Shown: piece by piece, positions 2,585 through 7,468 of the stretch
Position numbering within the stretch: the stretch's first letter is position 1
How the letters are laid out: every line of letters begins with the position of its first letter
Virus record (IMG/VR): IMGVR_UViG_3300042317_000788
Location: 1 to 25,842 of that record
Strand: one strand, 5' to 3'
From: a virus
Lineage: Duplodnaviria > Caudoviricetes
DNA: 25,842 nt
Translations under genes and position numbers: made by a program
The notes under the pieces: model-generated
Seen by the model: only the letters and a program-made list of their open reading frames with translations
Databases searched by the model: none
Told to the model about the DNA's origin: nothing

Positions 2585-2593
2585 TGTTATAAT
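2585..2593 (+). promoter_or_regulatory. Extended -10 promoter (TGnTATAAT) for hsp20
   Basis: TGTTATAAT directly after the terminator; the same motif recurs across the window. Confidence 0.7.
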
Positions 2594-2649: not shown

Positions 2650-3066
2650 ATGGTAACAACGTTCGCTATGGATCTTTTCAAAGATCCTTTTTTTATTGGA
2701 TTTAATCGAGAATTAGATAGATTAAACCAAGCACATTCAATTAATGCAGGTGGATTTCCACCATATGATCTACTTAAATTAGATGATGACAATTATACTA
2801 TCACTCTAGCAGTAGCAGGGTTCAGCAAAGAAAGCCTTGATATTGCGGTAGATAAAGGAACATTAATCATCAAAGGAGAACAAACAACAGTAACAGATGC
2901 AGAAGTATTACATAAAGGAATCGCTGCTCGTAAGTTTACTCGTTCATTTGCTCTTGGTGAATATATGGAAGTAACAACTGCTGATCTAACTGATGGAATG
3001 TTAAACATTCAAGTTACACGTAATGTTCCAGAAGAAAAGAAACCAAAATCTATAAAGATTAAATAA
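2650..3066 (+). CDS. hsp20: Small heat-shock protein, Hsp20/IbpA family
   Basis: FPPYDL, LAVAGFSK, HKGIAARKFTRSFAL, DGMLNI and C-terminal PKSIKIK (IxI) motifs; SD AGGAG. Confidence 0.95.
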   Translation: MVTTFAMDLFKDPFFIGFNRELDRLNQAHSINAGGFPPYDLLKLDDDNYTITLAVAGFSKESLDIAVDKGTLIIKGEQTTVTDAEVLHKGIAARKFTRSFALGEYMEVTTADLTDGMLNIQVTRNVPEEKKPKSIKIK

Positions 3067-3067
3067 T

Positions 3068-3203
3068 TCCGTATAATATATAGTTATAGAGATTATGAAA
3101 CATTGATCGGCTATATTTAATACGGATGCTCTAAATGAGAGTCGTTAGGCTAATACCCGTGAACGATAGACCTGAGTAGTTGTCTATAAACTGCTCACTT
3201 TTT
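3068..3203 (+). ncRNA. Putative structured RNA with 3' H-type pseudoknot
   Basis: Consecutive stems 3068-3085/3109-3126, 3128-3132/3138-3142 and 3141-3146/3162-3167. Pseudoknot ATAGAC/GTCTAT plus TGAGTAG/CTGCTCA, then a T run. No ORF. Confidence 0.5.
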
Positions 3204-3210
3204 AATATAA

Positions 3211-3240
3211 TGTTATAATATAGTAGTCAACAGTGTTGAC
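3211..3240 (+). promoter_or_regulatory. Extended -10 promoter plus perfect palindrome at predicted TSS
   Basis: TGTTATAAT (3211-3219); GTCAACA-G-TGTTGAC (3226-3240). Confidence 0.65.
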
Positions 3241-3255
3241 CTAGGAGAAGGGAAA

Positions 3256-5373
3256 CTGAAAAAATCACTTAGATTCTTAATTGTTTTAGGCCTTGTCGTC
3301 GGGTCTTTATTTTTCGGGCACTCAGACAAAGCCCATGCAACAGAAGGTTTAACTGCAGAAGTCTATAGTGTGCAAGGTCAAAATGGTTCTCCCTATATAC
3401 CACAAGGAATGTCTCCAACTTTAGTAACAACTGTACCCAATATTGATTTTCAATGGAGTGGTGGAAGTGTTCTTGGTGGTCCAGCAGAAGATGTCATTGT
3501 AAGATTTACAGGATCAATACTTAGCAATACAACCCAAGAAATATCATTTTTAGCAACAGCAGATGATGGAACTAAACTATATCTTGATGGAACTTTAATA
3601 ACAAATGATTGGGTTGATAAAGGTGGTGGAGGAACTACAAGTGCTCCAGTTTCTTTTACAGCAGGAGTTCCAAAAACTATAGAATTGATGTACTATGAAA
3701 ATGGCGGGGGAGCAAATGTATTCCTTCACTGGGATCAATCTGGATCTATGGATATTATTCCAGCATCAGCATTTACTTCGCAGGCAGCCCCAGTAGTAAA
3801 TACTATAGGTGCTCCACAAAATTTAACAGTAGTAGATGGAGAAACATCAACAGTATTAACTTGGGAAGCCCCAAATACTGGCAATATTCAACCAGAAAGA
3901 TATGCTATAGGTCTTAATACTCAGGGACAAAATGGCTGGGGTATTGCAACTGGAAATGTTGGTGGCCCTAACTCCCTCAATACAACAATAACAATTAGCC
4001 ACTCATTACTTGAAAGTCTAATGCCAAGTGGAACAGTATGGTCATTTCATATTAGATCAGATAATGACACACTACCTTTATATTCTGAAAATTCAAATGT
4101 GGTTACATTAAAAATTGGTAAAACTGCAGAAGAAATTGCTGCAGAAGCAGCAGCAGCCCAAGCAATAATCGATGCAGAAAATGCAAGACTAGCAGCCATT
4201 GCTGCAGAAGAAGAGGCTATAAGATTGGCAACAGAGGCCGCAGCAGCAGAAGCCGCAGCAGCAGCCCAGGCAATCATCGATGCACAAGCAGCAGCGGATC
4301 AAGCCTCAGCAATTGCAGCACAAGTAGCAGCCCAAGCATCTGCACAACAAGCAGAAGCAGCAAGGATACAGGCTGAAGCAGCAGCGATGATCGCACAACA
4401 AGCAGCAGAAGCACAGGCGGAAGCAAACAGACTTGCAGCCCTTGCTGCAGCCAATGCAGAAGCAAATAGAATAGCAGCAGAACTTGCTGCAAAATTAGCA
4501 GAAGAAGCAGCAGAAATGGCTGAAGAGGCAGCAAGGATACAGGCAGAGATTGATGCAAATGCAGAGGCAGATCGTATAGCAGCAGAACTTGAAGCAATAG
4601 AAGCACAGATGAGAGCAGATGCACAGGCAGAAGCAGACCGTATTGCACAAGAAGAAGCAGATGCACAAGAAGAAGCAAATGCTCAAGCAGAAACAGATAG
4701 AATTGTTGCTGAACAAGAGGCTATGGAACAAGAAATAGAAAATGCTAAAGCAGAAGCGGAGGCAGCCATAGCAGAAGAAGAAGCAGAAATTGCAGAAGAG
4801 TTAGCGGAAATTGCAGAAGCAGAGGCTGTTGAGGCAGAAGAAGAAAAGGCTGCTGAAGAAGAATTAAAAGAAATACTTGAAGAGGCAAAAGATGGAAAAG
4901 AATTAACTGAAGAACAAAAAGAAATTCTTGTTGAGGCATTAATTGAAAATCTTAAACCTGGAGAATCAATATCAGCAGAACAAGTTCAGGCATCTGGAGT
5001 TTCATATGCAGACCTACCACCTGAAACACCAATTGAAGTTCGTACAGATGAGAATGGAAATGCATTGGTTATTACTGCAGAAGTTGCTGCAAATATTGAA
5101 TTAGTTGAAGATCCAGGTGCATTGGTAGAAGCAATATTTACAGATCCAGGAGCAGCACTTGCAGCAATTGGAAGTATTGGTGCTGACATGACTGAAGAAG
5201 AAAGAGAAGAAGCAACAGATATGGTTGTAGCAACAGTTGTAGCAACAGGTGCTGCAATTAACGCAGCAGCAGTAGCAACAGGAGGAGCCACAGGTGGCTC
5301 TACTAGCGGAGGAAGTTCTGGCGGAGGCGGAGGAGCCAATTCACCAGGTTCAAGAGGAGGAAGAAGATGGTAA
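3256..5373 (+). CDS. Secreted PA14 + fibronectin-III-like + long Ala/Glu helical stalk protein (probable CTG start)
   Basis: In-frame extension upstream of the ORF-track start gives (M)KKSLRFLIVLGLVVGSLFFGHSDKAHA|TEG. PA14 motifs IDFQW, VRFTGSI, ADDGTKLYLDG, IELMYYENGGGA. FN3-like APQNLTV..LTWEAP. A/E/Q-rich repeats and a Gly/Ser tail. Confidence 0.85.
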   Translation: MKKSLRFLIVLGLVVGSLFFGHSDKAHATEGLTAEVYSVQGQNGSPYIPQGMSPTLVTTVPNIDFQWSGGSVLGGPAEDVIVRFTGSILSNTTQEISFLATADDGTKLYLDGTLITNDWVDKGGGGTTSAPVSFTAGVPKTIELMYYENGGGANVFLHWDQSGSMDIIPASAFTSQAAPVVNTIGAPQNLTVVDGETSTVLTWEAPNTGNIQPERYAIGLNTQGQNGWGIATGNVGGPNSLNTTITISHSLLESLMPSGTVWSFHIRSDNDTLPLYSENSNVVTLKIGKTAEEIAAEAAAAQAIIDAENARLAAIAAEEEAIRLATEAAAAEAAAAAQAIIDAQAAADQASAIAAQVAAQASAQQAEAARIQAEAAAMIAQQAAEAQAEANRLAALAAANAEANRIAAELAAKLAEEAAEMAEEAARIQAEIDANAEADRIAAELEAIEAQMRADAQAEADRIAQEEADAQEEANAQAETDRIVAEQEAMEQEIENAKAEAEAAIAEEEAEIAEELAEIAEAEAVEAEEEKAAEEELKEILEEAKDGKELTEEQKEILVEALIENLKPGESISAEQVQASGVSYADLPPETPIEVRTDENGNALVITAEVAANIELVEDPGALVEAIFTDPGAALAAIGSIGADMTEEEREEATDMVVATVVATGAAINAAAVATGGATGGSTSGGSSGGGGGANSPGSRGGRRW
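4126..4890 (+). repeat. Degenerate coding repeats (AAAAQAIIDA x2; AEA[N/D]RIAAE-like units)
   Basis: gcagcagcagcccaagcaataatcgatgca (4147-4176) recurs nearly identically at 4255-4284; several QAEADRIA/NAEANRIA units. Confidence 0.75.
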
Positions 5374-7393: not shown

Positions 7394-7464
7394 GCCTCTT
7401 TAGCATAGTGGCAGTGCTTCCGCCTTGTAAGCGGATGGTGCAGGTTCGATTCCTGCAAGAGGCT
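7394..7464 (+). tRNA. tRNA-Thr (anticodon TGT), CCA not encoded
   Basis: Acceptor GCCTCTT/AAGAGGC, D-stem GCAT/GTGC, anticodon stem TCCGC/GCGGA with loop CT-TGT-AA, T-arm GCAGG-TTCGATT-CCTGC. Confidence 0.95.
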
Positions 7465-7468
7465 CAAC

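Follow-up and report, generated by a model that had tools for sequence, protein, structure and literature searches.

A structured RNA of two layers behind hsp20 in a phage contig, capped by a portable H-type pseudoknot that may act as an exonuclease barrier

RNA folds that resist exonucleases have been described from eukaryotic RNA viruses (PMC10520033, PMC10321173). Coremin xrRNAs, which occur in beny-, cucumo- and other RNA viruses, stall Xrn1 as well as scanning ribosomes (PMC10520033), and a flaviviral xrRNA also blocks RNase J1 (PMC5760640). The coremin loop follows the consensus YG(N)nAD, in which a G at position 3 is no substitute for the G at position 2; the second pair is naturally swapped from G-C to C-G, and loops of up to 8 nt are tolerated (PMC6546385, PMC10520033). 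Another fold, xrRNA-WCC, needs G as its first loop base, and the substitution G5C abolishes resistance (PMC10321173). A 3'-to-5' block by coremin is not reported in the available portions of PMC10520033 or PMC10321173. Stable folds are also known from ribosome termination structures (RTS), whose signals peak at the ribosome-shielded edge (PMC7518266). Our literature searches returned no report of exonuclease-resistant RNA folds from phages.

The stretch of DNA analysed here, hereafter the window, is an entire record, a 25.8-kb virus contig. It encodes WhiB, Hsp20, 2OG-Fe(II) oxygenases and glycosyltransferases, a gene content from which we infer a phage of actinobacteria, and the sequencing runs that contain part of it carry the labels lake or fresh water. 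The structured RNA is located between hsp20 and a PA14-domain gene (Table 1). The region 5' of hsp20 (2546-2625) holds a terminator-like hairpin with a U run (about 2554-2584), the promoter-like site TGTTATAAT and a small leader hairpin, and the site at 2585-2593 is the likely start of the transcript bearing the RNA element. The PA14-domain gene probably begins at CTG 3256 behind AGGAG; the CTG start codon is kept in close relatives, and one relative (L127) has TTG at a similar place. The gene downstream of the element varies, as relatives have other genes where the window has this one. Further along, a lone tRNA-Thr(TGT) gene is present at 7394-7465.

The RNA at 3066-3203 is a real, uncatalogued structured RNA of two layers. 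Its predicted four-part fold of about 135 bases, in which three hairpins are followed by a capping H-type pseudoknot (hereafter the knot), was confirmed. The region has a folding energy of -35.7 kcal/mol (z = -3.15), which 0 of 200 shuffles equalled, and for 3066-3203 the + strand gives a more stable fold than the - strand (-35.9 vs -26.8), in agreement with the + strand RNA proposed earlier. The original prediction, made from the letters of this stretch, had described a long stem, hairpins, a knot, a U tract and a TATAAT, all of which lie where it placed them; its 18-bp imperfect stem (3068-3085/3109-3126) is paired at 16 of 18 positions, and the inner hairpin is present. Two details required revision. 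The element had been given a start at 3068, but the conserved unit begins at 3066 with AUUCCG. Similarly, the pairing of AUAGAC (3166-3171) with GUCUAU (3182-3187) as P1 is present, with one change to the 6-bp stem that had been drawn: because hairpin 3 and P1 compete for A3166 and U3167, P1 in the family is a stem of 4 bp with an optional 2-bp extension. Past the AAA linker, CUGCUCA (3191-3197) is complementary to the loop UGAGUAG (3173-3179).

Table 1. Features of the RNA element and its surroundings in the window.
Feature	Coordinates	Strand	Basis or remarks
Extended -10 promoter-like site TGTTATAAT, 5' of hsp20	2585..2593	+	Sequence; putative function
hsp20 gene	2650..3066	+	PF00011, E=4e-19; phrog_432; last stop-codon base is first base of RNA unit
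Hairpin 1	3066..3127	+	Near-invariant base UCCG/CGGA; upper stem variable, lengthened here; inner hairpin 3091-3108
TATAAT within hairpin 1	3072..3077	+	This lineage only; probably not the unit's promoter
Hairpin 2 (CUC/GAG, longer in relatives)	3129..3139	+	Two-sided changes in 4/5 pairs; 90% of cells paired
Hairpin 3	3141..3167	+	6-bp lower stem, A opposite GUG internal loop, GG/CC upper stem; adjoins P1
H-type pseudoknot	3168..3197	+	P1 3168-3171/3182-3185; L1 C3172; P2 3173-3179/3191-3197; linker AAA 3188-3190
U5 tract 3' of knot	3199..3203	+	Sequence
Second TGTTATAAT promoter-like site, putatively serving downstream gene	3211..3219	+	9-mer identical to the one before hsp20
PA14-domain gene, downstream	3256..5373	+	PF07691; open frame with signal-peptide-like start

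The region had been treated as one RNA, a view that does not hold, as the knot is a separate and far more widespread module. The strict pattern supplied with the original prediction matches an estimated ~2,600 stretches in IMG/VR, from which 120 loci were taken (112 distinct), and in most of these 112 the upstream sequence is unlike that of the window. A motif-independent sample was drawn from the best 80 of 592 Hsp20 relatives, which gave 67 distinct downstream regions. Using a pairing descriptor, the knot was found in 56 of the 67 hsp20 loci, and in 59 of 67 using a looser pattern; the remaining eight carry a different element instead, and on controls the descriptor gave 0/67 on the reverse strand and 0/67 in coding sequence. 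An alignment of 43 hsp20-anchored copies, with near-duplicates dropped, revealed two-sided changes in 7 of 10 pairs across both stems and 92.8% of cells paired, against 49% at most in slid controls; these counts lean in favour of covariation because the descriptor required pairing and kin share changes. Covarying homologs, sought both by the earlier pattern and via the Hsp20 protein, were thus found, with covariation in both knot stems. The unpaired bases C7, C8, A14 and A24-A26 (alignment numbering) are invariant.

A stricter knot pattern matches about 160 stretches in GTDB genomes (122 taken), with labels that include Lactobacillaceae, Patescibacteria, Cyanobacteria, Alphaproteobacteria, Chloroflexota, Bacteroidota, Planctomycetota and Methanobrevibacter; some of these carriers are probably mis-binned phage contigs. 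Records labelled Bacillota, Cyanobacteria, Patescibacteria, Alphaproteobacteria, Chloroflexota and Methanobrevibacter have an identical 26-nt core. Such breadth suggests that the fold is intrinsic and does not depend on a host-specific partner. The knot is also carried by cultured phages, with 27 records for one variant, and carriers include Lactobacillus phages KC5a, Lj771 and phig1e, Anoxybacillus phage A403 and Cylindrospermopsis phage Cr-LKS4. A search of 5,426 E. coli genomes, a weak test with a single variant, gave no match. Two or three knot copies lie close together in several loci (L017, L047, L061, L074, L154, L389 and L407), some with covaried stems, and the crAss-like phages cr124_1 and cr7_1 have weak knot matches, one of them at a tRNA-Val gene (E=0.1). 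At L438 and L439 (CP054675.1), a genome without an RNase J match, the knot sequence occurs in 3 of 16 complete CRISPR spacers, and the conserved knot may be a broad-range CRISPR target.

Comparison with coremin xrRNA-C revealed a common short first hairpin closed by C-G (43 of 43 knots) and a loop beginning with C, along with the natural swap of the second pair from G-C to C-G (PMC6546385). The window also has the AAACU of the coremin spacer A15-A16-A17-C18-U19-A20, with G in place of A20, and some copies have AAAAG. However, position 2 of the knot loop is U in 42 of 43 copies and C in one, where coremin needs G, and 5-7 Watson-Crick or wobble pairs join the loop to the 3' strand. A second hairpin of -3 kcal/mol or better follows the knot in 29/112 and 33/120 copies versus 22-24% in shuffles, and is thus not enriched. 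Moreover, coremin occurs in RNA viruses, whereas the knot occurs in DNA phages and prophages. As the loop G and the second hairpin of coremin are missing, resistance cannot be carried over from it; the phage knot is not a coremin member, and by analogy it may work alike. Like xrRNA-WCC, the knot is of H-type and formed by loop and spacer (PMC10321173), and the G8-C18 foot pair that stem 2 of that fold requires corresponds here to G3179-C3191, with G present in 70 of 73 copies of the whole unit described below. In contrast to xrRNA-WCC, short phage knots lack a G-C foot pair and have mostly A, U or C there, the first loop base is an invariant C, stem 2 is twice as long and there is no second hairpin.

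Luteovirus-type frameshift knots combine a 2-nt L1 that has an invariant C with a 1-nt L2 and an A-rich L3, and are placed 5-6 nt from the A-site codon. The phage knot resembles them in size, L1/L2/L3 layout and spacing from the A-site codon, but differs from them in having a stop codon in the A site, no shifted frame downstream and only non-coding copies. Three other identities were considered and rejected. Tymovirus-type tRNA-like structures have a pseudoknotted acceptor stem ending in NCCA; ACCA follows the knot in only 6 of 216 copies, and ARAGORN and Rfam gave no tRNA at the element. The boxA consensus is UGCUC followed by UUUA, with the sequence kept, whereas TTTA follows in 6/216 and the UGCUC bases change with their P2 partners. 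Lastly, a weak match to the GP20-b RNA motif (RF03003) overlaps the knot in Lactobacillus prophages; its 20.8 bits are below the gathering threshold of 36.2, the model pairs only the P2 strands, and the window has no match.

The position of the knot relative to coding sequence was analysed in 216 copies. This revealed that in 82 copies (54 of 116 from genomes and 28 of 100 from viruses) a sense frame of at least 150 nt ends 4-10 nt before the knot, and in one copy 0-3 nt before it; a frame ends inside the knot in 13, and no frame end lies within 60 nt in 61. The spacing of 40 terminator-like hairpins from the same loci differs, with five at 3 nt or less and one at 4-10 nt (Fisher p=7e-4, relatedness not corrected). 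The near-absence of knots from the 0-3 nt gap after stops suggests that the knot must stay folded on translated mRNA. Such sharp spacing could also mean that the knot, at the mRNA entry channel, faces the terminating ribosome, stops sliding after termination and insulates the next gene in an RTS-like manner. A stable fold just 3' of stops, at the edge where RTS signals peak (PMC7518266), and the stalling of scanning ribosomes by coremin (PMC10520033) would be in keeping with this. However, RTS are a genome-wide folding-energy signal, whereas the knot is conserved in sequence and in the window lies about 100 nt past the hsp20 stop, with hairpin 1 at 0 nt. In addition to the 61 copies mentioned above, some knots follow tRNAs or promoters, frames behind the stop have no long continuation, readthrough or shift in any frame (median 3-13.5 codons), and a passive exclusion zone predicts the same spacing, such that we regard an action on ribosomes as unlikely.

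Knots are also found at other positions. In 21 of 35 stop-proximal hsp20 copies, which come largely from one clade, TATAAT precedes the start of P1 by 7-8 nt, and 11 of 219 copies lie behind a terminator-like U tract; a ribosome-binding site with an ORF follows within 60 nt in 37/112 and 30/120 copies. A tRNA is located 3-14 nt 3' of the knot in 4/216, and a hammerhead core of type III layout lies within a few bases 3' of it in 5/216 contexts, with none upstream. In these five (L005, L324, L366, L386 and L405) the order is stop codon, knot, hammerhead core, ribosome-binding site and next gene; such neighbours are few and four look related, and with Rfam one tested alone reached 14.7 bits vs 48.5, and the three covered by a separate scan were not listed. 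In three Saccharibacteria-labelled loci (L356, L409 and L435) a conserved hairpin follows the knot, with a tRNA-Met 57 nt downstream in L356 and L435. Before a hammerhead or tRNA, cleavage would leave the knot as the 3' terminus of the upstream product, and knots before such cut sites argue against a purely 5'-to-3' block.

Knots at predicted 5' ends, in turn, argue against a terminator. A pseudoknotted intrinsic terminator or pause site, in which P2 beside the U tract releases RNA polymerase, was considered since U5 directly follows P2 in the window, at least five T are present in the 9 nt after the knot in 58 of 72 whole-unit copies, and no other terminator lies between the knot and the next promoter. 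However, the U5 follows P2 and not a simple hairpin, fewer than half of the copies have a U-rich tail (43/112 viral, 51/120 genome), and termination would be senseless for copies between a promoter and a ribosome-binding site or right after another terminator, making this explanation distinctly unlikely. A two-way nuclease barrier, as judged from position, fits all position classes.

The second layer is the whole unit of hairpins 1-3 plus the knot. A pattern for hairpins 1-3 matches about 270 IMG/VR stretches, of which 119 were taken (73 distinct including the window), and 106 metagenome stretches. The knot follows in 143 of 146 contexts of sufficient length, two more having a covaried knot; the remaining one (L496) was discarded as a chance pattern match. 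In an alignment of 36 members, 97.5% of cells are paired and hairpins 2 and 3 each have four pairs with two-sided changes, while the lower stem of hairpin 3 has two-sided changes in 4 of 6 pairs and is 100% paired; the internal-loop A and GUG of this hairpin were set by the search pattern. The base of hairpin 1, which is paired in the MFE of 34 of the 36 members, has 100% of cells paired with one C-G to U-G change and no two-sided change, and together with the knot it hardly varies across the alignment. Members differ in the sequence and length of the upper part of hairpin 1, which refolds nonetheless. Loops resembling T-loops are common in hairpin 3 of relatives and absent from the window's lineage. 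Searching with model R1 among 94 sources gave no distant whole-unit homologue, just weak scores driven by the knot. One 222-kb metagenome contig carries two whole-unit copies about 112 kb apart (L449 and L473).

A TA[TC]AAT hexamer is positioned 5-8 nt 5' of AUUCCG in 67 of 72 distinct copies (56 at 7 nt), a spacing that holds also where the upstream sequence is not hsp20, suggesting that in relatives the unit is a portable promoter-plus-RNA module. The independent transcript that had been proposed is therefore retained for relatives only, as a separately promoted unit of ~115 nt. Of 141 contexts, 93 have hsp20 upstream of the unit, and the remainder have a different or opposite-strand sequence there. 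Together with the constancy of the knot behind hairpins 1-3 and a second promoter often present between unit and next gene (a -10 hexamer lies within about 35 nt 3' of the knot in 50 of 72 relatives), this mobility is what would be expected of a stable decoy for a host or phage protein, bound via the hairpin-1 base and the hairpin-3 internal loop, with the knot just a cap. Against such a decoy, which we likewise judge to be unlikely, the hairpin loops vary in length and sequence, the invariant bases are partly fixed by the search pattern and their carriers are close kin, other hairpin modules take the site of the unit, and the window lineage has lost the promoter.

In the 235 nt behind hsp20 (L121-L200), the gap between promoter and knot holds several interchangeable structured modules. 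Among the 67 hsp20 loci, eight have the unit described here, nine a CUGCA...GCAG hairpin, ten a second small knot-like element with an AAAUA linker and eight a closed-stem element in place of the knot. Despite having the same Hsp20 protein, L121 and L122 differ in module and downstream gene, and L127 and L128 have the knot and promoter in common without the hairpins. Such exchanges could indicate that phages retain the conserved 28-mer chiefly as a DNA homology island at which they swap gene cassettes. The two-sided changes, G-U pairs in both stems and strand-specific placement require a constraint at the RNA level, however, and largely refute a swap island as sole cause; we consider it highly improbable in that role, and possible as a by-product.

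At the 12 loci of the window's lineage that were checked, the final base of the hsp20 stop codon is the first of AUUCCG, and hairpin 1 contains TATAAT; one member has a C-G to U-G change in the hairpin 1 base that keeps the pair. According to the original prediction, a transcript without the first arm could start from TATAAT 3072-3077. This proposal was not upheld: the family 5' end, AUUCCG, lies upstream of TATAAT, the -10 hexamer of relatives sits before AUUCCG and not inside hairpin 1, and the proposed short transcript refolds such that the hairpin 3 base is lost in the MFE. The 3072 site is also without the TG common to the TGTTATAAT sites at 2585 and 3211. As judged from sequence, the window lineage is without the upstream family promoter and its unit is fused to the hsp20 stop. 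The position of AUUCCG, the flanking TGTTATAAT sites and the TG-less 3072 site suggest that the unit here forms the 3' end of the hsp20 message.

Contigs assembled from 8 of 24 listed sequencing runs were compared over this region. The RNA-library contig X7 (3013-3158, depth 3.8), an assembled contig, bridges hsp20 into hairpins 1-2, which is compatible with an hsp20-fused message and does not show a transcript. Contig X6 (3143-3489, depth 2.65) runs through the knot into the next gene, as does X12, which is probably DNA. In X1 and X2, both from one study, cover ends at 3139 after a depth of 41-45, and X8 and X11 gave no contig over 2960-3440. As X1, X2, X6 and X7 are assembled contigs, no RNA end, strand or level follows from them.

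The claim that the element matches no Rfam family was borne out by Rfam 15 scans of the window and of the loci of 34 relatives. Rfam gave only a tRNA elsewhere on the whole window and no family at the element, nothing above chance on 2950-3350 (best 10 bits, E=5.7), only tRNA and tmRNA on 20 knot loci, and no family at the element in L212, L131, L135 and L136. Full-text literature searches with motif strings gave chance matches only, among them a tombusvirus text match that is an unrelated 3' end (bioRxiv 2024.06.23.600130). Topic searches over titles and abstract starts returned no paper on the motif, and the part of the PMC10690425 supplements that was covered contained no match. A new class of ligand-binding (riboswitch) or self-cleaving RNA could be imagined for a compact knot of aptamer-like size that has invariant unpaired bases and occurs beside ribozymes. 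However, there is no Rfam match, known core, visible expression platform or common theme among the varying downstream genes, and at sites that seem to require cleavage a hammerhead or tRNA accompanies the knot. The ligand-binding and catalytic functions offered with the original prediction are thus left unsupported, and we consider them very unlikely.

The explanation that we tentatively prefer, at somewhat less than an even chance, is that the knot is a protein-free exonuclease barrier and, in the window, caps the hsp20 message at its 3' end. Transcripts started at the hsp20 promoter (2585-2593) would run through the unit, the RNA beyond the knot would end by weak termination at the U tract or by a downstream cut, and trimming by 3'-to-5' exonucleases would then stop at P2, fixing the 3' end of the message. 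The necessary rigidity might be provided by packing of the AAA linker in the P1 minor groove and by contact of the invariant loop C with the near-invariant P2 G, an analogy taken from A-linker packing and the loop-C contact in luteovirus-type knots. At loci where it occupies a 5' position, this fold would protect against 5'-to-3' decay (RNase J), resulting in two-way punctuation of transcripts, and relatives in which the unit has its own promoter would make it as a stable small RNA of ~115 nt.

A barrier is supported by knot-stem covariation in copies found through the Hsp20 protein and not the motif, by contexts in which the knot would cap a 3' end (hammerhead, tRNA) or a 5' end (TATAAT, U tracts), and by the hairpin-1 geometry and AAACU common to coremin xrRNAs, which stall Xrn1. 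Against it count contigs X6 and X12, which run through the knot into the next gene such that no RNA end at the knot is shown, and the invariant bases of hairpins 1-3, whose retention it leaves unexplained. Among 50 hand-picked host genomes (50 of 122 loci, chosen for breadth), 31 have a full-length RNase J, one a partial match and 18 none, a tally weakened by MAG incompleteness and mis-binned phage contigs. Small knots protect the 3' ends of engineered guide RNAs. The available portion of PMC9978821 contained no confirmation of such protection. A bolder proposal, which we consider rather unlikely, is that viruses infecting many bacterial phyla, and possibly archaea, share this 28-base protein-free RNA knot as a prokaryotic equivalent of the xrRNAs of eukaryotic viruses, a two-way mechanical insulator against exonucleases parked at the entry channel of terminating ribosomes, with which freshwater actinophages cap swappable small structured RNAs, that of the window included.

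The analysis of the window adds a stop-codon spacing measured with a comparator, together with the hammerhead neighbours of the knot, and the window itself contributes a natural variant in which the unit, minus its promoter, is fused to an mRNA. As the RNA is short enough for synthesis and cultured carriers exist, the proposal is directly testable. If true, the knot would be a very small part for synthetic biology. It would also extend the exonuclease-resistant folds described from eukaryotic RNA viruses by a 28-nt example present across many phyla, one that would let phages set message ends and per-gene expression levels without a protein.
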